A DNA stretch of 64,000 nt. Origin: Escherichia phage AV128. The stretch lies in sequence record OR352958.1; one strand, 5' to 3'. The translations under genes and the position numbers were made by a program. Shown here piece by piece: positions 1,449 through 62,071 of the stretch; the first letter of the stretch is position 1; every line of letters begins with the position of its first letter. The notes under the pieces are model-generated. The model did no database searches. It saw only the letters and a list, made by a program, of their open reading frames with translations, and was not told the origin of the DNA.

Positions 1449-3446
1449 ATGCCAAGGCTAATATTCAAAAACAACTTTGAGGTCGCGCTGGCTCAACCAA
1501 CGACGACTTCAGACACCACAATCACAATTCGCTCAGGGTCAGGCTTTCCGACCTTGGGCGCAAACGAGCGTGTAGTGGCGACAATCGTCGACGCTGCAAC
1601 AGGCCTCCAATTTGAAATCGTCACAGTAACAGCCGTGGTTGGAAACGTCCTGACCGTGCAGCGTGCACAGGAAGGTACTGCAGCGCGTGCATGGAGCGTC
1701 GGAGATTTTTTATCCATAAGGGTGACGGCTGCCATATTGACAAGCACAGTAAGGAATTTTGGAGAATTACCTTCTGGAATAAACTTAAATGCCCTTACTG
1801 GTTCTTGGTTCGGTCAATACCAGCAGTCTTCTAATTCTGCGGCTTCGCAAGTTCTGAATTATCCTGTAGCCCAATCAGGCAGCCTTGAGGTTATTTGCTC
1901 GGCAAACAACTCTGGTGACCAATCTTGCACGCAAATATACAGCACGAATCCTGACAACAAGCAGTACAAAAGAACTTATAATTCAGAAACAAGCACATGG
2001 TCTACTTGGGCTAAAATATATAACTCTTCCGACGTGATTCCAGTCTCCAATGGAGGGACTGGTGTTTCAGACACAGGATCAATAAGAAGAGCAATACTGG
2101 TTCAAGGTGTAGTTTGTAACGATCAGACGGGGCCGCAGTCGTATAACAGCTATCGTTCACCCAACAGCACCTACACTTTCAAGGTTGACAACTCAGGCCA
2201 GGTGGCCTCAATCAATACGGGTACTGAAGAGGTTGTCCCGTTCGCCGTAAGCGCTGGCGGTACAGGGGCAACTAACGCTTACGACGCTCGCATCTCATTA
2301 GGTGTGGGAAGATTCAGCGAGCAAACCAACGAGACTAAAGTTCTAGCACCCAACTTTAGCACTTACATTTACGTGAACGACACCGACTGGGGATGCTTCA
2401 GCCCTACCGTTGGCGGTCGTATTGCGTTGAGTGTGGCGAGTGGTGGTACAGGGGCAACTAACGCTGCTCAAGCACGTACTAACCTCGGCATTGGTTCCGC
2501 AGCAACATTCAACACTGTACCGTTAGCTAACGGTGGTACAGGGGCAACCTCCGACGCTGCTGCTCGCGTCAACTTGAAGGTGGATAAGCTCGTTCAAAGT
2601 TCAACTGACACTAAACTTTTAGATGGTTCAGGAGAGCATACTTTCTTTATTACAGATGGGGATTGGGGGTATTTCAATAATTCTGACTCTTCTCGAATTG
2701 CTCTACCGGTAATTAGCGGAGGTACGGGAGGGAAAACCCCAGCAGAAGGTTCTGAAAACTTAGGGGCAATGCACTGTTGGTACGGTTCCTCAGTCTACTA
2801 CGGTGGTGGTGATTTACCAACTGGTATTGGATTCTACAGCGGGGACACGTCACCTTTTCCGGGAGGTAATGGGGCACCCTTCATATATGCGGAGATAATG
2901 ACTATTGCTGAAGGTGGTCGTGGAGGTAACTGGTCCCAAATAGGGTTCTCTACTATCACATATGAAGCCCCTCGCTACAGACAAAGGACTGCTGACCCTG
3001 CTTTAATTACTAACTGGAGAGATTTCTTGATTCGTGATCTCAACACTACAGTTGACAGTAACGGTTTCATTAAAATCGCATCCCCTATCGTGAAAATCAA
3101 AGGTGACGGTGGTGCTGAGTACAACGACGAGTCTGAAGGTTGTACAGTGGAACGCATCTCGAAAGGTGTCTACCGGATTTCAGGCTGCCTCGGCTTAAAC
3201 TCTGACGCATCGTGGGGCGGCACTGACGGCGGCTTCGAGATACCACTCGACCGAAACAAGCAACCTCGTATTTGGCTGGACTATAAAGTGAATGAAGATG
3301 GATCAATTGATATTTTCACGTATCACAGAACGCACAGCAACGCACCAGTATTTGCAAGGAATAACCTTGAAGGTTATGCAGACGGAGACCCAATAGACAT
3401 ACCAAAGGATGCATTTATCTCTGTGAGGGTGCAAATGCCAAAGTAA
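1449..3446 (+). CDS. tail fibre protein with phage tail-fibre repeats
   Basis: Four copies of xGGTGATNAxxARxNLG-type motif typical of the phage tail fibre repeat family; 665 aa. Confidence 0.8.
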   Translation: MPRLIFKNNFEVALAQPTTTSDTTITIRSGSGFPTLGANERVVATIVDAATGLQFEIVTVTAVVGNVLTVQRAQEGTAARAWSVGDFLSIRVTAAILTSTVRNFGELPSGINLNALTGSWFGQYQQSSNSAASQVLNYPVAQSGSLEVICSANNSGDQSCTQIYSTNPDNKQYKRTYNSETSTWSTWAKIYNSSDVIPVSNGGTGVSDTGSIRRAILVQGVVCNDQTGPQSYNSYRSPNSTYTFKVDNSGQVASINTGTEEVVPFAVSAGGTGATNAYDARISLGVGRFSEQTNETKVLAPNFSTYIYVNDTDWGCFSPTVGGRIALSVASGGTGATNAAQARTNLGIGSAATFNTVPLANGGTGATSDAAARVNLKVDKLVQSSTDTKLLDGSGEHTFFITDGDWGYFNNSDSSRIALPVISGGTGGKTPAEGSENLGAMHCWYGSSVYYGGGDLPTGIGFYSGDTSPFPGGNGAPFIYAEIMTIAEGGRGGNWSQIGFSTITYEAPRYRQRTADPALITNWRDFLIRDLNTTVDSNGFIKIASPIVKIKGDGGAEYNDESEGCTVERISKGVYRISGCLGLNSDASWGGTDGGFEIPLDRNKQPRIWLDYKVNEDGSIDIFTYHRTHSNAPVFARNNLEGYADGDPIDIPKDAFISVRVQMPK

Positions 3447-3480: not shown

Positions 3481-3499
3481 TGCTATATTAAGTTATACT
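3472..3499 (+). promoter_or_regulatory. sigma70-like promoter (TTTACT-16-TATACT)
   Basis: Hexamers and spacing read directly; upstream of 3530 gene. Confidence 0.4.
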
Positions 3500-3529
3500 C
3501 ATTATACGTTAACAAGTGAGGTGGATGAA

Positions 3530-3811
3530 ATGAAATTTGAAGACATCGACAAGGCCCAAAAAGCAAAGGCGCTGCCTAAATATGTCATCTGTGGTATTGA
3601 CCCTGAAGATAACCGCTTGGTTTTCTTAAAGCAAGTTGATAGCAATGAATCTGGCGACGCAGCTAATTGGTGCATCCCTTTGTTTGAGACAGCAGAAGAA
3701 GCCCAGAAGGTATTGTCAGAAAGCAATTTACCTAAACACTACAGTGTCGTTTCACAAGATGACATGGCAAAATTAGTGTTTAATTTTTATGGATATGGGA
3801 GAAGATTCTAA
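3530..3811 (+). CDS. hypothetical protein
   Basis: ATG at 3530 with GAGGTGG RBS; track start 3521 is GTG. Confidence 0.45.
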   Translation: MKFEDIDKAQKAKALPKYVICGIDPEDNRLVFLKQVDSNESGDAANWCIPLFETAEEAQKVLSESNLPKHYSVVSQDDMAKLVFNFYGYGRRF

Positions 3812-4020
3812 TGGAAATTAAATTATTGTCTGATTTCGTAAAAAGTATTGAAGCCAAAGGCATGACAATCAAGGCTAAGAAAGGCGGCATTGTCTGCATT
3901 GACAAACAACAAAGCAATCAAGGCATATCACTTGATGATATCAAAACTATGCAAAAGCTTAATAAGAAAGGCGACTTGCACAAGTTCTTGAAGGATATTG
4001 GAGCGGTGGACAATGGATAA
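3811..4020 (+). CDS. hypothetical protein
   Basis: GGGAG RBS; ATG overlaps previous stop. Confidence 0.45.
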   Translation: MEIKLLSDFVKSIEAKGMTIKAKKGGIVCIDKQQSNQGISLDDIKTMQKLNKKGDLHKFLKDIGAVDNG

Positions 4021-5219: not shown

Positions 5220-5292
5220 TGGGTGTTGCTGATTTAACCGTGAATCGTGGGTCGCTGTGGCGGCCCTTTCTTTTGCCTGCCGCGCAGGAGTG

Positions 5293-5399: not shown

Positions 5400-5489
5400 T
5401 TCATCAAGTACCAAAACGCACCAAAAGACCCATGCCCTAAAAACCACACGAACGCAATAATCAATCGCCGTTACAGTTTCCAGCGTTAC

Positions 5490-5760
5490 AATTAGAAAGC
5501 GAATGATTCGATGCATAATAATATGAAACATAATGATTCGAAAGCGAATGATTGCGTGTAGGATAATATCGGTGGGGATTATTATATATGTCGGTAATTT
5601 CGCATGCGTACTATTTTCGGGCGAAGGGTCGGCATATTCCTCGTTTTAGTTCGGAACGAAGGGAAAGTTTTGCGCCTTTATAAAACAACGACTTACGCGA
5701 CCCGCCTTAACGGTCCGATATAGGTGTCTATATAAAACAAGGACTTGCGCGATGTTCTCC
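5490..5760 (+). repeat. cluster of short direct repeats in non-coding DNA
   Basis: AAAGCGAATGATT twice, TATAAAACAAsGACTTrCGCGA twice, several CGAAGGG copies. Confidence 0.5.
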
Positions 5761-5916
5761 ATTTAACGTAATACCTGTTATGCGAACTAAGGAGCATCTC
5801 GAAGAAGATTATGCGACGACGAAGGGAAGGATAAAGGAGTTTTCGCGTAGGAGCGCACCGAGATAGGGACGAAGAAAAGCCGCGACTAAGCGCGGCCTAT
5901 TAGTAACGGAAGGGTA

Positions 5917-6207
5917 TTATAAGGAGACGATTTTAAAATAAGTCACTTCGCCGCCGAGTTGCGGTACAGCGATATATTCGCCGCCGATTTCGGTAATCGT
6001 ATAGACGAAGCCGTTAATCGTTACGCGGCAGGATACGATGTCCTCGTCGCGATACTTGTAAAGGTCGAGGAAGTTGATCGGCTCATAAATAGACTCGATA
6101 GTTGCGTCGACGTTAGAGAGATAAACGCTCTCTAAGGTTTCGCCAAATACGTTAGAGTTTTCGGAAGTCTCGACGCGAGCGGAACGGATAGCGGCTAAAG
6201 TAATCAT
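5917..6207 (-). CDS. small protein, paralog family member A
   Basis: AGGAG RBS; shares VY..NVD.TIE and NG...EIG motifs with 6493-6795 and 7020-7304 products. Confidence 0.55.
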   Translation of the reverse strand: MITLAAIRSARVETSENSNVFGETLESVYLSNVDATIESIYEPINFLDLYKYRDEDIVSCRVTINGFVYTITEIGGEYIAVPQLGGEVTYFKIVSL

Positions 6208-6274
6208 AATAATCTCCTAGTTGGTCGGGCGGGTAGCGACCTATTCGCTACCTCATCCCCTCTCGATATAAAAC

Positions 6275-6303
6275 ATTATAGTCTTAGTGTACGAAGAAGT
6301 AAA
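6275..6303 (-). promoter_or_regulatory. sigma70-like promoter (TTTACT-17-TATAAT) for paralog A
   Basis: Hexamers on minus strand; flanking sequence conserved with the other two paralog promoters. Confidence 0.5.
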
Positions 6304-6322
6304 GCACTTTTCGTTATTTTTT

Positions 6323-6475
6323 CTATTTATTTAAAGCGCGTCTCCCAAGTTCGACGACCCAAGCGGCGGCATCTTCCGCCTTATTAAATTCGTATAGATG
6401 CTTCTTATCTTCGAAGACGTAAAATAAAATACGTCCGAACTTATTAGCCTTCGCGCTTAACTCGATAGTTTTCAT
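6323..6475 (-). CDS. small hypothetical protein (50 aa)
   Basis: AAGGAG RBS 6 nt upstream; below ORF-track cutoff. Confidence 0.4.
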   Translation of the reverse strand: MKTIELSAKANKFGRILFYVFEDKKHLYEFNKAEDAAAWVVELGRRALNK

Positions 6476-6492
6476 CTTCTACTCCTTTTTCG

Positions 6493-6795
6493 TTATTTTG
6501 CGATAAAATATTTATAAGCCTTATCGCCTTCTACGTCGATATACTCGACGATAATTAACGCTTCGCCGCGCGGCGTAACCGTCTCGATAAGGGTAACGGC
6601 TTCGTCGTCGGTCTTCGCGAAGCGGATGGCACTACGTTCGGCGTACTTAATATCGTCGAAGGAAAGGCCGACGAAAGCGACCGCGCGGACCTTAATGATG
6701 GTGGATTCTAGTTCCGCGTTAACGGCGGCGATAAGAGAACGAACGGTTAAACGGTCTTCGTCGTAAGTAATGATAGAAGAGATTAAAGTGGTCAT
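6493..6795 (-). CDS. small protein, paralog family member B
   Basis: ATG at 6795 with GGGAG RBS; track ORF extends to 6852. Confidence 0.55.
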   Translation of the reverse strand: MTTLISSIITYDEDRLTVRSLIAAVNAELESTIIKVRAVAFVGLSFDDIKYAERSAIRFAKTDDEAVTLIETVTPRGEALIIVEYIDVEGDKAYKYFIAK

Positions 6796-6851
6796 AATAA
6801 AACTCCCGATGCTAGTAGAAGGAAGGGCCATCGCCCGTCTCGATATAAACA

Positions 6852-6879
6852 AGTATACGCGAGTGTACGAAGAAGTAAA
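6852..6879 (-). promoter_or_regulatory. sigma70-like promoter (TTTACT-16-TATACT) for paralog B
   Basis: Near-copy of the 6275-6303 promoter element. Confidence 0.5.
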
Positions 6880-6923
6880 GAAAAAAGATAAAATAATTTA
6901 TCTCATTTTTATCGAAAAAGTGC

Positions 6924-6951
6924 TTTACTTTTTTCTACACTATATTATAAT
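6924..6951 (+). promoter_or_regulatory. sigma70-like promoter (TTTACT-16-TATAAT) for paralog C
   Basis: GTGCTTTACTT...TATAAT conserved with the two minus-strand copies; divergent from 6852-6879. Confidence 0.5.
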
Positions 6952-7019
6952 GTACTCATATCGGGACGGGATGAGTTAACGAATAGGTCGTTAACGCCTC
7001 TCCCAACTAGGAGTTTAAA

Positions 7020-7304
7020 ATGGCTATTCTTAACGTTTCTTCTATTCGTAACGCTATCGTCGAGAACTACGGCGTAAAACAAATTTTATCCGAAGTCTAC
7101 GCCGCGAACGTAGACCAAACTATCGAGGCGGGTGGGGTAACGGTCGCCGAGGCGTTTAAACTTTACGCGGCGTTACCGGAATCGGACCGCGAAGCCTTCG
7201 AAGTAAACGTTAACGGATATTTCTTCGAAGCGGTCGAAATCGGTAATATCTTACTCGTTATGGGCGAAGAAGAATTTGAGACCTTCTCCCTCGTCGAAGC
7301 GTAA
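7020..7304 (+). CDS. small protein, paralog family member C
   Basis: AGGAG RBS; protein motifs shared with paralogs A and B. Confidence 0.55.
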   Translation: MAILNVSSIRNAIVENYGVKQILSEVYAANVDQTIEAGGVTVAEAFKLYAALPESDREAFEVNVNGYFFEAVEIGNILLVMGEEEFETFSLVEA

Positions 7305-7384
7305 GAGAGGATTTTTAGAGCGTCGTGCGCGGCGCTTTAATAAAATTCTTTCGCGCCTAGCGCCCTAACAAATAGGAGTTTATT

Positions 7385-8011
7385 ATGGTTAGCTTAAATC
7401 GCTTTTCTACTAGCGGCGACGTTATCGCAACTAAGACCGCCGACCTCGTTGCATTCTATAATGCAAATTCCGGCTCAAAACCGATTAAGAAGTTTGCGGA
7501 CCGCCGGACCGCCGAGACTCGCGTAATCGCGTTAATCGAGTCCTTAAACGCGCTCGATGAGCCGTCCAACGAGTCGCCCATCCCTGACGCGAAGCCGCGC
7601 GAGGAAGTGTCCAGCGATGTAAAAACGCATAAGGCGCGTGCGGTCGTTAAAAAGGCCGAGCCGACCCAGGAAGAACTCGATGCGATGAGCGATGAAGAGT
7701 ATGAAGCCTTCGTTAAGAGCGGCTTAAACGATAGTGCAAATTGCGTAGTGCAAAATGGAACTCCTTCCCATCGCCGTTCGAATAGCGAAGGTATTGCAAA
7801 AAGTTGGGATAACAAGGAAGTGGCGCAAAAGCGTCTCACCCGTAACGGCGTTATTGTCGAGGGTGTAGGAGAGTTCAAATCGGTCCGCGTAGCGTTTGCT
7901 GCGCTGGGCTTACCAGATAGCAAGCACATTCGCTTCCGCATGAAGCTTAAAGAAGCTGGACGCTTGAACTTCGAGTTCGGCAACAAGTCCTACACCTTCC
8001 AGATCATCTAA
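7385..8011 (+). CDS. hypothetical protein
   Basis: AGGAG RBS; contains two motif copies (7731, 7746) near its 3' end. Confidence 0.5.
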   Translation: MVSLNRFSTSGDVIATKTADLVAFYNANSGSKPIKKFADRRTAETRVIALIESLNALDEPSNESPIPDAKPREEVSSDVKTHKARAVVKKAEPTQEELDAMSDEEYEAFVKSGLNDSANCVVQNGTPSHRRSNSEGIAKSWDNKEVAQKRLTRNGVIVEGVGEFKSVRVAFAALGLPDSKHIRFRMKLKEAGRLNFEFGNKSYTFQII

Positions 8012-8017
8012 TCGAAT

Positions 8018-8041
8018 GGCGGCCCTTCGGGGTCGCTTTTC
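8018..8041 (+). terminator. Rho-independent terminator
   Basis: Stem gcggccc/gggtcgc with ttcg loop and TTTT tail, 7 nt after stop. Confidence 0.5.
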
Positions 8042-8061
8042 ATAGTGCAAATTGGTGGCTT

Positions 8062-8325
8062 ATGAACACGCTTATTCTCATCGCTACGTTGTCCATCGGA
8101 AGTGGTCGCGCCTTATCCCTTTATGACCATAGTGCAAATTGCGCTTACCCAACGCGCGTTGCGGCGATAGTTAATAGTGCAAATCGAATGCTATTTGAGA
8201 CTTGTTGGCGGGTAGATAACGAGAAAGGGCGCATCGTCTTAGGTTATAGTGCAAATCTGCTGGTGGAGTCGTTCGATTGGACGGCGGAAGGTCGTAAATT
8301 GTTACGTAAAGTGACTAAAAGATGA
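8062..8325 (+). CDS. doubtful ORF inside motif array
   Basis: GGTGG RBS and bracketing terminators, but three SAN tripeptides are translations of the DNA motif. Confidence 0.2.
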   Translation: MNTLILIATLSIGSGRALSLYDHSANCAYPTRVAAIVNSANRMLFETCWRVDNEKGRIVLGYSANLLVESFDWTAEGRKLLRKVTKR

Positions 8326-8384
8326 CTTATAATAATACACTTTCTAACGCGTTTATGGTTGTAGCCTTCCCCGTCGTATTACCG

Positions 8385-8426
8385 ATGGCCCTAGAAGTTG
8401 AGAAAATGTGTTCTAGGGCCATTTTA
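8385..8426 (+). terminator. strong Rho-independent terminator
   Basis: Perfect 12-bp stem atggccctagaa/ttctagggccat, 14-nt loop, T-rich tail. Confidence 0.6.
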
Positions 8427-8439
8427 TAGTGCAAATTGG

Positions 8440-8913
8440 CTAGTGGCGGGAGAATTGCTCACCCTCTTTGGCTGCCTCTCCAAAATCCTTGTAGAAATCG
8501 TCCATGGAACGGCCCATTTTACTATTGCCATTTTCATCAATCATCGTGATGCCGTAGATGATATTCAGTTCACGGATAGCATTAAGCTTGGCTGATGCCG
8601 CGACTTCTGGATCACGCACAAGCTTCACTAAATTGTGGATGGAACTCTTTACGCTCCACAATTCCTTCAATGGCATCTCTTCCATACGCTTTTTGTAGCG
8701 CATCTTGTAGTACGGATTGCGCTGCGTGCAGAGGATTCGCTGGCCAGTGTAGTTATCGGTCGCAACCTCCATGCCAAATACTAGTGCAAAAGCTGCGCGC
8801 ATGTCATGGCCCTGAATAACAAGGTCAATGAACTCATCGAATAAAGCCTGATTGTGCTCTGCAAATCGCGGGTCTTCAAAGTCCTCAGGCATCGCTACAT
8901 AATCTTGACTCAT
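8440..8913 (-). CDS. hypothetical protein (about 157 aa)
   Basis: Long ORF downstream of a strong minus-strand promoter; no Shine-Dalgarno; start 8913 or 8928. Confidence 0.45.
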   Translation of the reverse strand: MSQDYVAMPEDFEDPRFAEHNQALFDEFIDLVIQGHDMRAAFALVFGMEVATDNYTGQRILCTQRNPYYKMRYKKRMEEMPLKELWSVKSSIHNLVKLVRDPEVAASAKLNAIRELNIIYGITMIDENGNSKMGRSMDDFYKDFGEAAKEGEQFSRH

Positions 8914-8948
8914 AGTGCAAAATCCCATAGTGCAAATTAATAGTGTGA

Positions 8949-8977
8949 ATTATACAATGATTGAACATTATATTCAA
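8949..8977 (-). promoter_or_regulatory. sigma70-like promoter (TTGAAT-17-TATAAT)
   Basis: Near-consensus hexamers on minus strand about 35 bp upstream of the 8913 start. Confidence 0.5.
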
Positions 8978-9140
8978 GTGCAGATTGATGTTCAAATTGG
9001 CTGTAAACGTACACAAACCATAGTGCTGAATGAATATCGGACCGTGGTGCGTGGTGTACTGTTTGATACGTATAAAAGAAATCCATCCCTTTCGCCGCTT
9101 GTTATGCAAATCAATGACTTAGCCGCTGCTGGATGGTTGA

Positions 9141-9430
9141 AGCGTATCATGAAGTATCATCCGTATTGCCGCAAGTCTTTGTTTTTACTTATATCTTACG
9201 GATGATACGTATAAATATAAGTTTAGTATAAGTATGAGGATGTAGAAAAAAATTAATTTAAATTAATTCAAAATGGAGTTAATTGTTTTTTTTCAAAGTT
9301 GTATAAAGTATAGCGGCGACGCGTATCATCCGTATCATCCGTAAGATGTACCACTGAACCCAGTCGCGGCGCACCATAGAAGTGTGTGGAGTGAACTACG
9401 GATAGGTCCAAATCTTACGTCATTATACGC
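9141..9430 (+). repeat. iteron-flanked AT-rich element A
   Basis: TACGGATGATACG at 9197; AT-rich core 9241-9300; inverted CGTATCATCCGTATCATCCGTA at 9322; homologous to 61620-61900. Confidence 0.65.
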
Positions 9431-9539
9431 TTAAATTCTATGCGTAAGGTTAGCCAGCTAACTATATCTCCTTTTTAATTTCAAGCGGCAATCCCATAGA
9501 CGGCGCAGCCTACAGGCCCACACACCACGGTACACGCTC

Positions 9540-9720
9540 CAATTCCTAGTGATTCCCTCTACAATCCCACAGCACCACAGTACAATATTCTTCCAAATAC
9601 GCACACATATTCAAGACACACAAATCACGTCACAATCCTCGTTTCACACCATCCTCTAATAGATTTACACAAATCAATCGCTTTATCCGATAATAAAGCC
9701 TCACAAACAACAGGCAAACA
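9540..9720 (+). other. G-depleted CA-rich non-coding tract
   Basis: About 14 G in 180 nt on plus strand by hand count; CACA-type runs; no ORF. Confidence 0.6.
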
Positions 9721-9738
9721 AAAAGGGCCAATCGGCCC
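9714..9738 (-). terminator. Rho-independent terminator ending the minus-strand early block
   Basis: Stem agggcc/ggccct with aatc loop; U-run on minus strand. Confidence 0.6.
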
Positions 9739-9756
9739 TCTTAACATTAGTCAAAA

Positions 9757-10209
9757 TTAAAATATAAAATTCTTCACTCCTAGCCTTTTAAATTCTTTCC
9801 TTAACATTATATTAAACTTCTTCAATTTAGTTTTATTCATCCTTAGCGGATTGTAGGTGAACACCTTTTCTATTACTTCCTCGCTCATTTTTGAGCGCAT
9901 ATTAGTTGCGTAATAGTTCTTGAACGTATAAATAAGGTAATTTGCTTCAAGCTTAAGTTCAATTACTTCCTCCGATTCATCAAGCTCAAGCAATCCTCTT
10001 TGCGTAAGAATATCTCTTAATATATCCTGACATTTCTTGCAATCACCTTTGCCTAAAAGCGAGTCGATATAATCGCCGCTGACGCGCTCATCACCGAAAT
10101 ATGTTGCGCGACCGCAAAGGCTTTGCACTTCTCCTTCGTCAAAGTAATGCGCACGATGGCCCCACTTCGGTATGGCCCAACCAGCGGCGATAAGCCGTTT
10201 GCCCATCAC
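9757..10209 (-). CDS. hypothetical protein (Cys-containing)
   Basis: ORF in tightly packed co-oriented early block. Confidence 0.4.
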   Translation of the reverse strand: MMGKRLIAAGWAIPKWGHRAHYFDEGEVQSLCGRATYFGDERVSGDYIDSLLGKGDCKKCQDILRDILTQRGLLELDESEEVIELKLEANYLIYTFKNYYATNMRSKMSEEVIEKVFTYNPLRMNKTKLKKFNIMLRKEFKRLGVKNFIF

Positions 10210-10631
10210 CCCTCCTTAACGACCCGATAAGCAATAATGTCACTGCCTTTGAGTGCTCCTATATGACCCCAGTGAAGATGGTCAGAAAGTCTCGACAGTA
10301 CTTTATCACCTCCATTGCGCAGCTTGTATTCAACAATCTCGCCAGGCACCGGATTCTTTCCACCAAGCCACACGGTCCACGCACCATCCTTCGGCGCACT
10401 TTCCTCTTCGATTCGCGTGGCAACAACGTCGTGCAACTGCTTAACGAGCGCCGACGCATCACGGACCTGTGAGCGTAATGCAACCAACTCGCGTTGCGCT
10501 TCACTGTATTTCGCTTCCAGCGCGGCGTAGTCCTCATATGCAACAAAACGTCCTTTGTGACTTTCTGGAACAGGAGTGATGTCGAAATCTTCTGTCGCCA
10601 CATCGTATGTCAGGTCGTAACGTTGTACCAT
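10206..10631 (-). CDS. hypothetical protein
   Basis: ORF in co-oriented early block, stop-start overlap. Confidence 0.4.
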   Translation of the reverse strand: MVQRYDLTYDVATEDFDITPVPESHKGRFVAYEDYAALEAKYSEAQRELVALRSQVRDASALVKQLHDVVATRIEEESAPKDGAWTVWLGGKNPVPGEIVEYKLRNGGDKVLSRLSDHLHWGHIGALKGSDIIAYRVVKEG

Positions 10632-10634
10632 GAT

Positions 10635-11027
10635 TTAATCCTGTTTGTATTGAATAGTTAATTTGACGTAAGCCTTTCCGATTACTTTTGCGCGTTTATA
10701 TTCGATTGCGCGAAGGAGTTCGAAACGCATCCAAGTGGTGCGACAAGGTTGACCGTCGACAATCTCATAGATGATGCCGTCGCTATCATCACTTGTCGGG
10801 AATGCATAAATGCTTCCAGAAGAATTGACCATTTTGACAACGGTGTATTCTTCGCCTGCCGTTTTCATAAGGTCAATTTGCAAGTCACGATGGGCCAGTT
10901 CAGCAGCGATGTCAGACTTGCTGTAAAGTCCTTCGTGAGTCATGGCATAGATGTGGCGCGTATAATAGCCGCCCTCGTCGAGTTGCTCGATGTCACGTTG
11001 CCCGACTGCGTATTGTTTATCGGTCAT
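10635..11027 (-). CDS. hypothetical protein
   Basis: ORF in co-oriented early block. Confidence 0.4.
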   Translation of the reverse strand: MTDKQYAVGQRDIEQLDEGGYYTRHIYAMTHEGLYSKSDIAAELAHRDLQIDLMKTAGEEYTVVKMVNSSGSIYAFPTSDDSDGIIYEIVDGQPCRTTWMRFELLRAIEYKRAKVIGKAYVKLTIQYKQD

Positions 11028-20959: not shown

Positions 20960-22042
20960 CTATTTTATGCCACCTGCACGACGATTTATCATGTCAAGTT
21001 GATTCTCAATATAAGGCATGACGATTGCTTCAACAAAAGCAGTCCAACCTTTCTTGCCTTCCCCTTTACGGTGACAGTCGTGGGCGCAACCGAACACAAA
21101 CTCATGCTCTGCACCAGGGATAGGGCCGCGAAAGTACGCGCCATACGGGTCGCCGTTGGTGTGCTCTTCACCCCAAGGACAGATTATGCGGCACTTGCCT
21201 GACATGTTCTCGATGACGTCGCCATCAGACCCTTCACCCATCTTGTTGCGCGCAAGAATTTGCTGGGCTATCTTATACCAAACAGCATCGTACTTGTATT
21301 CATCGACGTCAATTTGAATCTCACGCTTTTGCGGCATTACAACGTGAAAGCCGAACGCCTGACAGATGTCTTCGATGGTGTAGCGCAAGGAGTAGTCTGC
21401 ATGGACAAGTCGGCAGCGAAACGGGTCGCCGTTCTCATCGACATATTTATAGGGGCCGTCGTGAGTCACACGCTTATTGTTGATGCACCCAGGAACACGG
21501 CCCACGCGCGTTACGTCTTTAATCGTGTTGTCGCCGCCCTTCTTGAGTACCATGTTAACGAAAGACCCAAGGAACGCTTTGAACTGAATAAGATGGTCAA
21601 TCGGTTCTTTAAAGAAGTACCACAGCTGGTGGTTGTTCGGTGATGTCTCGACGATGACAGTCGGCTTCAGTCGCTCGAAAAAGAATTCCAAATCTAAATC
21701 GCCTTTGGACCCTTTACCGTGGCCGATGTCGTCGACCATCATCGCCATACCGTGACCAAAGGCCGACTCTGTACGCCAGTATCGCATCTCACCCGTCTTT
21801 GGGTTGGGAGACTTACGCATTGAACTGATGCACGCATAGCCGTTTTGGTGCTGCATGAGCGGCTTGCCCAACTTCCAAGGCTTAGGCCAGAAGCTGCTGT
21901 TGATCTTCTTGCCGCGCTCGTCGGTCTGTACCGTTGCTTCAGGAGCAAACACCGTCATGACGCGCTCATCTTCTGGGATTCCTCTTTGGAGTTCTGTTAA
22001 AAACTCTTCAATTATTTTTGCTTCTTCTCTTAAACTAGCCAT
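20960..22042 (-). CDS. putative primase-polymerase (archaeo-eukaryotic primase-like) with C-terminal Cys/His cluster
   Basis: hhhDD-like MAMMVDDIG and SxxNxHxxW-like ETSPNNHQLWYFF motifs; GAAGGAAAG RBS. Confidence 0.45.
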   Translation of the reverse strand: MASLREEAKIIEEFLTELQRGIPEDERVMTVFAPEATVQTDERGKKINSSFWPKPWKLGKPLMQHQNGYACISSMRKSPNPKTGEMRYWRTESAFGHGMAMMVDDIGHGKGSKGDLDLEFFFERLKPTVIVETSPNNHQLWYFFKEPIDHLIQFKAFLGSFVNMVLKKGGDNTIKDVTRVGRVPGCINNKRVTHDGPYKYVDENGDPFRCRLVHADYSLRYTIEDICQAFGFHVVMPQKREIQIDVDEYKYDAVWYKIAQQILARNKMGEGSDGDVIENMSGKCRIICPWGEEHTNGDPYGAYFRGPIPGAEHEFVFGCAHDCHRKGEGKKGWTAFVEAIVMPYIENQLDMINRRAGGIK

Positions 22043-22202
22043 CTTTCTTTCCTTCGGTGATCAATACCTGCAGTATAATATTGAGTGATACAAAGTCAAC
22101 AATATTTACCATTTAGTTCACAATTTCGATTTACTTTGCTTTATACTATATCTGCAATTATACTATCAGAAAATATTTCCGCACTAACAAAGGTCGCCTG
22201 AA

Positions 22203-23713: not shown

Positions 23714-23872
23714 TGTTGACGTAAATTTACGAAAAATAAAACTGAAAATCAGTTTAATTAAAGTGGCATTGCCGCCATAGTTTTTAGTTGCTACTGGCGG
23801 CGACTGAAGGCATAATTAAGTTATCCCAAACGGGGAATATAAAATAAACTAATTTATTTAAGGACTGTGAAT

Positions 23873-24712
23873 ATGGCCGAAGCAATCAAAGTATTATCTA
23901 AAGAAGAAAAACAAGCAGCCGCAGCAGAACGTCGTCGCGTGGCTGAAGAAAAACGCCTGGCTAAAAAGAAAGAAGCCGAAGAAAAACGCCAGAAGCGTGA
24001 GCAGGAAAAACAAGCCAAGCGTGAAGAAGCCGCGCTGAAGCGCAAACAGGCTGCTGATGAGAAGGCTCAGAAGCGTGCTGAAGAAGCAGCTAAGAAAGCT
24101 AAAGAGCGTGCAGAAAAGGCTGCTGCTAAGAAAGCAGAGCGTGAAGCCGCTAAAGCAGCAAAAGAAATCGAAAAGGCAAAGGCCAAAGAAGAAGCCAAGC
24201 GCCTGAAAGCTGAACAAGCTGCTGCTAAGAAAGCAGAGCGTGATCAAGCCCGTGCTGCAGCAAAGGCCGAAAAAGAGAAGGCTAAAGAAGAAGCGAAAGC
24301 GAAACGCAAGGCAGAGCGTGAAGCTGCTAAGATCGCGGCGAAAGAAGCTGCAGAACAGCAAAAAGAACAGCGTAAGAAAGAAGCTGAAGAACGTCGCAAA
24401 GCCATCGCAGAGCGCAAGGCTGCCAAAAAGGCAAACGGTCAGCGCCGTGCAAAAGCTACTCACTTCATCTACACTGGCAACGGCCTGAGCCAGCCGCAGG
24501 AGCACTCCACCCGTGGGCGCGTTCTGGCGGCGATCAAAGAAGGCGAAGTTGGCGTGGCGCAGTCTATCGATGAGCTGGGCGAGAAAGTTAAAGATCAACT
24601 GTTTGGCGCTTCCGTTCGCTCCTACCTGAGCAAGCTGGAAGAGATGGGCCACATCGAGTTTGTCGATGTTGAATCCAACGACGATGCCGAAGACGGTGAT
24701 CAAGCGGAATAA
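23873..24712 (+). CDS. Lys/Glu/Ala-rich coiled-coil protein with globular C-terminal domain
   Basis: About 200 aa of KEA low-complexity repeats; about 100-bp tandem duplication in DNA; AAGGA RBS; track start 23867 is GTG. Confidence 0.6.
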   Translation: MAEAIKVLSKEEKQAAAAERRRVAEEKRLAKKKEAEEKRQKREQEKQAKREEAALKRKQAADEKAQKRAEEAAKKAKERAEKAAAKKAEREAAKAAKEIEKAKAKEEAKRLKAEQAAAKKAERDQARAAAKAEKEKAKEEAKAKRKAEREAAKIAAKEAAEQQKEQRKKEAEERRKAIAERKAAKKANGQRRAKATHFIYTGNGLSQPQEHSTRGRVLAAIKEGEVGVAQSIDELGEKVKDQLFGASVRSYLSKLEEMGHIEFVDVESNDDAEDGDQAE

Positions 24713-61516: not shown

Positions 61517-61619
61517 CCACCCTCAAATAAGTATTGTGTATTATATCTAATGAAAAAAACTTAGGCAAACAATAATTATGGTTTGAATATGTATAACAAC
61601 CGATATAGCCGCGCCTTAA

Positions 61620-61900
61620 TTAGTGTGATACGGATGATACGGATAAAATGAGGCGTATTTTTATCCGTATCGGTGTATAAGCCGCGCTATCACTGGTGTG
61701 CTACGGATGATACGGATGATACGGATACTTTTCATATATAAGAGTTTATAAAAAAAATAAAATTAAATTAGATATATAATTTTAAATTAATTTATTTGAA
61801 TTCCTATAAAGTATCGCGGCAACGCGTATCATCCGTATCATCCGTAAGATTCTTTTGAAAACAACTACTTACTTGATACGGATGATACGTCATTATACGC
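61620..61900 (+). repeat. iteron-flanked AT-rich element B (paralog of element A)
   Basis: GATACGGAT tandem units at 61627 and 61702, AT-rich core 61741-61800, inverted CGTATCATCCGTATCATCCGTA at 61825, GATACGGATGATACG at 61875. Confidence 0.65.
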
Positions 61901-61933
61901 GTAAAACCCTGCGGCAATCCATTGCCAGGCGAT

Positions 61934-62071
61934 TCAGTGAATATTAAAAAGCACTCCAGCAACTAAAACGCCAATCAGCATCGAGTCGTAAACAGCCCAT
62001 TTCCAAGAAAGCAAAGAGTTGCAATTAATATTTCGCACTTTAACGTAACGTGACTGAATAATCTTTTGCAT
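61934..62071 (-). CDS. small membrane peptide (45 aa, C-terminal hydrophobic segment)
   Basis: AAAGAGGAAG RBS 4 nt upstream; below track cutoff. Confidence 0.3.
   Translation of the reverse strand: MQKIIQSRYVKVRNINCNSLLSWKWAVYDSMLIGVLVAGVLFNIH

Follow-up and report, generated by a model that had tools for sequence, protein, structure and literature searches.

Why a phage genome should hold some two hundred nucleotides in which one strand is almost free of G is the question raised by a non-coding tract of Escherichia phage AV128 (record OR352958.1), of which a stretch of 64,000 nucleotides, here called the window, was analyzed. The G-depleted, A/C-rich tract occupies positions 9518..9724 on the plus strand (A78 C68 T44 G17 of 207), with a core at 9540-9720. 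An earlier note on the core, made from the letters alone, counted about 14 G in roughly 180 nt by hand and listed three options without choosing among them: an unstructured RNA, a protein-binding platform, or a single-stranded DNA-related site for packaging or replication. The tract proves to be real, statistically extreme, and maintained in evolution as a composition. It stands beside the inner boundary of the phage's long terminal repeat, where it might serve as a loading site for the termination factor Rho.

An exact count of the core gives A68 C57 T42 G14 in 181 nt, equal to the hand count and corresponding to 7.7% G vs 22.8% overall. All 181-nt windows of the 64 kb together have a mean of 41.3 G and a standard deviation of 7.5, so the skew that the earlier note called unusual lies far outside genome variance. 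The global minimum of the same scan, 13 G per 181 nt, is located within this tract; windows with 14 G or fewer make up 0.08% of all, a low tail that centers on the tract, and the binomial probability of such a count (G ≤ 14, n = 181, p = 0.228) is 6.7e-8. Depletion sets in sharply, with 21.8% G in 9275-9517 and 8.2% in 9518-9724 (17/207; C/G 4.0). Within the tract, 9555-9654 (C38, G6) surpasses every other 100-nt window of the 64 kb in C-minus-G excess, whichever strand is read, at 32 vs 25 for the next-best window (standard deviation 7.1). The residual G of the tract is found mostly in CG context, and its dinucleotide odds ratios are close to genome values. On the right-hand side, the G-poor composition carries on over the 3' end of the convergent gene 9757..10209, up to ~9845.

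Other compositional extremes of the window lie far from the tract. The runner-up low-G region (16 G at 21998) belongs to an AT-rich divergent promoter region, 22043-22202, that divides the minus-strand gene block (22042->9757) from the plus-strand block (22203->), and its low G comes from ordinary AT richness. The T-depleted minimum (11 T per 181 nt at 24258) is explained by a plus-strand open reading frame (ORF), 23867-24712, which encodes 281 amino acids of an extremely K/E/A-rich, low-complexity, coiled-coil-like sequence.

Depletion of G on a single strand leaves the plus-strand RNA of the tract unable to fold: the predicted structure reaches just -13.7 kcal/mol over 201 nt, with a centroid that is almost unpaired, in agreement with the unstructured RNA among the three options. 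Translation of this RNA is not expected either. The absence of an ORF recorded in the earlier note holds in practice, the ORFs across 9540-9720 being of only 33-48 amino acids and conserved on neither strand.

The right end of the tract, at which an A-run is found, adjoins a GC hairpin, GGGCC-AATC-GGCCC (9725..9738, minus strand), followed on the minus strand by TTTTTGTTTG with its T-run. Canonical in form as an intrinsic terminator, the hairpin ends the minus-strand block 22042->9757, the last gene of which (9757..10209, minus strand, 150 amino acids) is convergent with the tract, and it is annotated as a terminator in the record of phage WFH. The earlier note was correct in placing the tract with a repeat-bearing element on one side and the minus-strand block's terminator on the other.

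To the left of the tract lies the genome terminus. The region is ~96% identical to the Wifcevirus myoviruses ECML-117, WFH, FEC19, and Bas101, and by its sequence the window is that of a Wifcevirus (an ECML-117/WFH-like myovirus) with a direct terminal repeat (DTR) of ~3.7 kb. Repeats of ~3.7 kb are reported for WFC and WFH (PMC6563267), of 3,673 bp, by PhageTerm, for Mansfield (PMC6753283), and of 3,533 bp for Ro157lw (PMC6454146). The exact 3,701-bp repeat present at both ends of the WFH record maps to 9274|9275 at its inner boundary (..AATTCAAAAT|GGAGTTAATT.., in the AT-rich palindrome center 9213-9327) and to 5423|5424 at its other end. The Mansfield record, opened at its PhageTerm boundary, stops at 9274|9275 too, and the repeat length of Ro157lw places the boundary there as well. 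From this mapping the virion reads, in window orientation, as DTR 5424-9274, unique region from 9275, and DTR again. The tract is thereby located 244-450 bp into the unique region, within an 828-bp gap (8929-9756) without credible gene. The record of ECO71P1 (OP172789.1) begins at ~9209, 65 bp inside the boundary of WFH, Mansfield, and Ro157lw, a start that may be arbitrary or differently inferred. The other boundary, 5423|5424, falls directly after CGCACCA and is accompanied by a shorter A/C-rich stretch on the plus strand (5401..5500, G 13%), which comes after the terminator of the rightward gene block (~5240-5275).

Comparison of the gap in 13 further Wifcevirus genomes shows that the boundary, the motifs described below, and a core, CCAG(T/G)CGCGGC, are common to all. 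Past ~+200 nt from the boundary, the sequences fall into at least four mutually unalignable tract groups, every one of them G-depleted. Type 1 includes the window, WFH, Bas101, ECML-117, and FEC19; type 2, WFC, Bas100, CWP003, Ro157lw, EC150, Eco4M-7, TH32, and one metagenomic contig; type 3, Bas98 and Bas99; and type 4, RCIP0319. The depletion spans 250-450 nt in each group (1-8 G per 50 nt), with a tract length of up to ~450 nt in Bas98/99; over the final 300 nt, hairpin included, the count is 27-36 G in every group. Types 1 and 4 are C-rich as well (32-34%), and in types 2 and 3 it is A that is abundant, C being ordinary (22-25%); in type 2, G amounts to 5-10% and A to 42-46%, with C and T near normal. 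Even within type 1, identity in the tract is 92% vs ~96% in the flanks. Tract type shows no co-variation with the adjacent gene, which encodes a 150-amino acid protein in types 1 and 3 and a ~180-amino acid protein in types 2 and 4. A similar tract is present, as a composition, in every relative examined, and its sequence is not retained. With the exact G counts, this leaves the earlier observation standing against both of the refutations that the earlier note proposed for it.

The same layout recurs in a second genus, Myosmarvirus, represented by the Serratia phages MyoSmar and MTx. MyoSmar reportedly has 17.41% whole-genome nucleotide identity with ECML-117 (PMC6753285), and its record is oriented like the window, with the PhageTerm DTR boundary (3559) inside an AT-rich center that has a TG-rich arm alongside. 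A 22-mer, CCCAGTCGCGGCGCACCATAGA, located at 9359-9380 in the window, is found in identical form in MyoSmar at 3634-3655, or +75..+96 from the boundary vs +85..+106 in the window. The identity is between type-1 Wifcevirus and MyoSmar, and the latter also carries an inverted near-copy of the 22-mer in the opposite palindrome arm (3349-3372). After the 22-mer, MyoSmar has ~180 nt composed of 39% A, 38% C, 11% G, and 12% T (GC skew -0.38 to -0.58, AT skew +0.58), with the promoter-like TTAAGT-16-TACAAT directly upstream, and this tract is followed by an A-run and a GC hairpin and then by a convergent primase-helicase gene. The order of elements is repeated in a second species, MTx, the record of which runs in the opposite orientation; a GC-rich stretch, gcacgcggcgag, there takes the place of the exact 22-mer. 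The tracts of both phages contain 38% C and 10-11% G, with best-window C/G of 9-11.

The parallel extends to the other DTR boundary, where CGCACCA stands just before the cut in Wifcevirus, MyoSmar, and MTx; in both genera, a rightward-block intrinsic terminator lies just upstream and an A/C-rich stretch just inside the repeat. A search with a 17-mer, CCAGKCGCGGCGCACCA, returned 57 stretches, with the architecture in ECML-117, FEC19, and MyoSmar only. Use of the 22-mer region in blastn gave nothing new beyond Myosmarvirus members, and an IMG/VR search with the 162-amino acid protein encoded in the DTR gave close relatives only. This conserved terminus architecture is previously undescribed for these phages. 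The position of the tract just outside the DTR boundary, together with its recurrence in Myosmarvirus, strengthens the link to packaging raised in the earlier note.

Between the boundary and the tract lies one arm of an imperfect palindrome of ~490 bp (9041-9531), which has the DTR boundary at its center; the tract fills the space from this right arm to the hairpin at 9725-9738. The collinear inverted alignment of the palindrome scores 23.5 vs 11.7 +/- 1.7 for block shuffles. Its core is a 23-nt inverted repeat (9190-9212 / 9328-9350) about a 115-bp AT-rich center, and the whole contains four copies of TACGGATGATAC, two of which (9154-9165 and 9197-9208) are in the left arm (9041..9274), inside the DTR. 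The right arm (9275..9517), outside the DTR and normal in G content, holds two copies of GTATCATCCGTA (9323-9343) as well as the 22-mer. The tract begins at the outer edge of the palindrome, marked by the outer arm CCACACACCACGGT (9518-9531).

A paralogous palindromic element at 61590-61960, lying between minus-strand genes, contains six copies of TACGGATGATAC, a motif that has 11 matches in the window vs 0.19 expected by chance. The paralogue has neither the 22-mer nor a G-poor tract, and both are therefore specific to the terminus copy. This distribution suggests that the shared part of the element is regulatory (an operator, promoter, or origin-like sequence) and that the unique parts are terminus-specific. 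The 22-mer is a candidate determinant of terminus recognition.

The boundary is also flanked by promoter-like sites in both directions. The rightward one (9279..9309, plus strand; TTAATT, 17-18 nt, TATNAT-like) has a predicted transcription start site near 9316, and each of the four Wifcevirus types has TTAATT-17/18-TATNAT at +5..+38 relative to the boundary, with scores of 6.7-9.8 bits. Leftward sites likewise keep their position in the four types. Two strong sigma-70-like promoters, TTGAAT-17-TATAAT and TTGAAC-17-TATAAT (8949-8995), precede the 162-amino acid gene inside the DTR (8440..8928, minus strand), and a third leftward site has its -35 across the boundary. Because these face-to-face sites overlap the boundary, the leftward one is split in the terminal copy of the virion.

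What is conserved in the tract, namely G depletion, an unfoldable RNA, an excess of C over G, the lack of translation, a downstream hairpin, and free sequence turnover, also defines sites of Rho loading, and for this reason we tentatively favor a function in transcription. Possibly, though with less than even probability, the tract is a rut-type zone, free of structure and defined by its composition, on which Rho loads and which thereby insulates against untranslated RNA transcribed rightward out of the DTR. We infer that the plus strand of the tract is transcribed and that Rho acts on the transcript. The RNA in question would originate at the predicted boundary promoter, from which an untranslated rightward transcript would pass through the tract, or by read-through from plus-strand DTR genes. 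On leaving the repeat, such transcripts would present ~200 nt of ribosome-free RNA almost devoid of G, on which Rho would load, freeing RNA polymerase at or before the hairpin at 9725-9738. In this direction the hairpin has no good U-run and could act only as a pause hairpin, so that it would delay the polymerase without terminating transcription. The outcome would be that the 12-kb convergent minus-strand block is spared antisense transcription. Leftward transcripts would be halted by the same hairpin in its capacity as an intrinsic terminator, and hairpin and tract would jointly insulate the DTR/terminus element from the unique region in both directions. At the other boundary, the rightward-block terminator would be reinforced by the A/C-rich stretch in the same manner.

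The rut sites of Rho-dependent terminators, of which rutA/rutB of lambda tR1 are examples, are defined by composition and not by sequence, as is the tract, and both are thereby free to evolve in sequence. Further points of likeness are that the tract is untranslated, at least 80 nt in length, G-depleted with C>G, regular in its C spacing, unstructured, and followed by a GC hairpin no more than 150 nt downstream. RhoTermPredict (PMC6407284) looks for a window of ~78 nt with C/G >1 and a C every 11-13 nt, plus a hairpin with a loop of 4-8 nt within 150 nt downstream. The best such window in the tract is 9554-9631 on the plus strand (C28 G5, C/G 5.6, C spaced every 11-13 nt), and AGGGCC-AATC-GGCCCT, with a fully GC stem and a 4-nt loop, lies 93 nt downstream of it. 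All six tract versions, four from Wifcevirus and those of MyoSmar and MTx, exceed the C/G threshold, with best-window values of 2.7-11; among validated RhoTermPredict predictions in E. coli, just 37 of ~4,500 have C/G ≥3 (PMC6407284). Comparable downstream hairpins are present in RCIP0319, MyoSmar, and MTx, and an exact-stem search in types 2 and 3 found no downstream hairpin. The sharing of one composition by at least four unalignable versions among the 14 Wifcevirus genomes, together with its recurrence in MyoSmar and MTx, fits the evolutionary signature that would be expected for rut sites. The second A/C-rich stretch, of the same polarity and located after the rightward-block terminator in both genera, fits a directional, transcription-level role.

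The tract differs from typical rut sites in its length (~200 nt, and up to ~450 nt in Bas98/99), in its extreme C/G (4-11), and in its fixed position beside the DTR boundary. Several observations weigh against Rho loading. In two of the four Wifcevirus versions, those of types 2 and 3, low G goes with abundant A and not with abundant C. Transcription of the plus strand is only predicted, from sites of modest score within AT-rich DNA. Criteria of the RhoTermPredict type are permissive, yielding 23,930 predictions in E. coli (PMC6407284). RNA antisense to the downstream block has more C than G in any case (skew -0.1 to -0.18), and a dedicated rut site is therefore not obviously needed. The paralogue at 61.6-61.9 kb faces a convergent gene without having a tract, which ties the tract to the terminus copy and not to the promoters of the element. 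Finally, a tract of near-identical composition directly follows the terminal repeat of phage T7, where an effect of Rho on transcripts made by T7 RNA polymerase is unlikely.

The alternative that survives best places the function in the DNA itself. The tract would be an accessory of the terminus, acting in terminase assembly or cutting at 9274|9275, in duplication of the repeat from concatemers, or in a pause during ejection once the repeat is inside the cell, comparable to that at the T5 injection stop region. Its key property would be either that one strand of the duplex cannot fold back or that flexible CA/TG steps abound, and not any given sequence. We consider this conceivable but on balance unlikely. 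It draws on the short distance to an experimentally supported DTR boundary, on the restriction of tract and 22-mer to the terminus copy of the palindrome, and on the order of boundary, 22-mer, tract, and hairpin, which is common to Wifcevirus and MyoSmar, the latter with a reported whole-genome nucleotide identity of 17% to ECML-117.

T7 provides the closest compositional match. Its nt 161-345, directly after the 160-bp repeat, contain A71 C57 T37 G20 of 185 in the same polarity as the 181-nt Wifcevirus core, and are non-coding, strand-asymmetric, and on the unique side of the boundary, as in Wifcevirus; the lengths are also close (185 nt vs 181-207 nt). We take this segment to be the 'SRL' array of CCTAAAG-type short repeats, the function of which is unknown; Dunn and Studier are said to have described, in 1983, the T7 short-repeat array that follows the left terminal repeat. 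The T7 tract is thus an array of a 7-bp repeat, whereas Tandem Repeats Finder and a repeat search of 9518-9724 revealed no repeat unit and no tandem or dispersed array. It also abuts the repeat, whereas the Wifcevirus tract starts 244 bp off, with the 243-bp palindrome arm between. T7, moreover, is a podovirus without relationship to these phages; its repeat measures 160 bp, and it has an RNA polymerase of its own. Since the asymmetric tracts of SP6 and phiKMV have other compositions, the match with T7 may be coincidental.

A second comparison is offered by Repeat Region 3 of T5, or the injection stop signal (iss) region, located where the left terminal repeat has its inner end (Davison, bioRxiv 10.1101/866236; NC_005859 annotation). 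As in Wifcevirus, a long, untranslated, palindrome-rich region, of 1.2 kb in T5, straddles the boundary between DTR and unique region and is followed by convergent genes; a paralogous inverted-repeat copy exists elsewhere, the counterpart of 61590-61960; and a strand-asymmetric run lies beside the boundary. In T5 this run (NC_005859 10000-10199), which falls in the annotated injection stop region, is C-depleted and G-rich, with a GC skew of +0.69, the DRD direct repeats being its apparent counterpart. Unlike the Wifcevirus tract, it is G-rich on the outward-reading strand and lies just inside the inner end of the left repeat. T5 has paired DnaA boxes, whereas none (TTWTNCACA) were found in 8929-9760 of the window, which contains four in all vs 7.3 expected by chance. 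Two-step injection is a feature of T5 and is not known for Wifcevirus. Chi sites number four in the window and zero in the tract.

The comparators disagree among themselves, which counts against a DNA-level role: the T5 run is G-rich and inside the repeat, the SP6 tract C/T-rich, and that of phiKMV A-poor. Strand-asymmetric non-coding tracts beside DTR boundaries may be commoner than recognized; a general rule for DTR phages was rejected, as T7 matches and T5, SP6, phiKMV, and N4 differ in composition, side, or polarity. Pbunavirus was rejected as a comparator, being reported as circularly permuted and terminally redundant and hence having no fixed boundary. The tract itself contains no repeated motif or conserved sequence, though any proteins binding to it ought to differ very little between phages with flanking DNA ~90-96% identical, in which the tract versions are nevertheless unalignable. 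The lack of a conserved motif argues against sequence-specific protein binding, and the protein-binding platform among the three original options, with neither an internal repeat family nor sequence shared between close relatives, finds no support. There is, in addition, no known mechanism linking one-strand G depletion to cutting, packaging, or ejection.

A stronger form of the DNA-level view holds that tract, boundary palindrome, and 22-mer together constitute a required, composition-coded cis element for making or using the long DTR at the start of the unique region, and this we regard as improbable. Its extension to Wifcevirus, Myosmarvirus, and perhaps T7, with a function in duplicating the repeat, cutting the end, or pausing the entry of DNA in a T5-like way, is doubtful to the same degree.

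Less probable again is that the tract has no function of its own and is a weakly constrained spacer shaped by local mutational asymmetry, for instance by deamination of C and A on a single-stranded minus strand. That strand would be exposed as the non-template strand in leftward read-through, or by 5'-3' resection that runs beyond the repeat as concatemers form. The pairing of a G+T-rich with an A+C-rich strand recalls the asymmetry of animal mitochondrial DNA, and the shift in type 2 is nearly pure plus-strand G->A, as C->T on the minus strand would give. Rapid turnover, evident both within type 1 and between the unalignable types, is in line with such a process, as is the skew of the adjacent minus-strand genes, which is weaker and of the same sign. 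Yet the abrupt onset at 9518 coincides with functional landmarks, and at least four sequence lineages, with a second genus besides, have arrived at or retained the one composition. Type 1 and Myosmarvirus are also C-enriched and T-depleted, which would require a second bias, and the location of the tract downstream of a good intrinsic terminator means that leftward transcription should be lower there than in the genes. Polarized substitutions in the tract (A>G 10, G>A 5, T>C 8, C>T 7) show no asymmetry, in a test that is underpowered and that used a type-1 set contaminated by one type-2 metagenomic contig.

We give still less credence to a functional non-coding RNA of ~420 nt, extending from ~9316 to 9738, in which a structured 5' palindrome arm would precede a long, unpaired A/C-rich tail. 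Such a tail, being unable to self-pair, could serve a host RNA-binding protein as sponge or landing site, or could prime replication or form an R-loop, and the RNA would be delimited by the positionally conserved promoter-like site and the terminal hairpin. The hexamers CACAAT and CACCAC, the only two common to all six tract versions, provide a weak signal in its favor (0.07 expected for six-way sharing, as tested against mononucleotide shuffles only). In opposition, an Rfam search of 8000-11000 gave no match to the RNA, only two chance-level hits (E 0.36 and 0.45), both outside the tract; the fold of the whole RNA is no better than that of shuffles (z -1.1); and its 5' part is not conserved between types apart from short motifs. 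The hairpin has no U-run on the plus strand, and a defined 3' end is consequently not expected. A G-poor RNA is also a poor R-loop former. Sigma-70-like promoters within the tract (TCTACA-17-TACAAT and TTGCCT-16-TATTAT) were considered and rejected, as they are not conserved between types, and a literature search found no transcriptomic data for Wifcevirus.

Small 'hypothetical protein' coding sequences are annotated over the tract, the terminator, or the DTR boundary in Bas98-Bas101 (stretch coordinates 3558-3847, 2450-2997, and 2940-3329), MyoSmar (3497-3862), and MTx (1101-1295), and those that several GenBank records place there are probably annotation artefacts and not genuine genes. That these annotations (gene 007 in MyoSmar, gene 103 in MTx), with ORFs of 33-68 amino acids over the tract in some records, reflect minus-strand small protein genes is highly improbable, and a coding tract was rejected, because the ORFs differ in each tract type (those of type 1 are missing from the others), begin with GTG or TTG, encode low-complexity hydrophobic strings, and cross the terminator hairpin or the DTR boundary, and because nearly all substitutions among type-1 relatives alter an amino acid and FEC19 is frameshifted in two of the ORFs.

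The generation of long direct terminal repeats is not understood (PMC6454146, citing Casjens and Gilcrease), and the tract is now placed within a deeply conserved architecture at the inner boundary of one such repeat, consisting of a palindrome centered on the cut, a 22-mer, a tract defined by composition only, and a terminator. Should the tract be a Rho-loading insulator, it would provide a clean natural case of an element selected for composition alone, and it would show a phage that depends on host RNA polymerase isolating the genes of its terminal repeat from the remaining genome. A role at the level of DNA would instead provide a testable handle on repeat generation and on the old puzzle of the tract that follows the T7 repeat. 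A system for genome synthesis and rebooting exists for a member of the genus, vB_Eco4M-7 (PMC11074155). With the origin of long terminal repeats unexplained, the cis-element reading, if true, would supply a defined and mutable DNA element.

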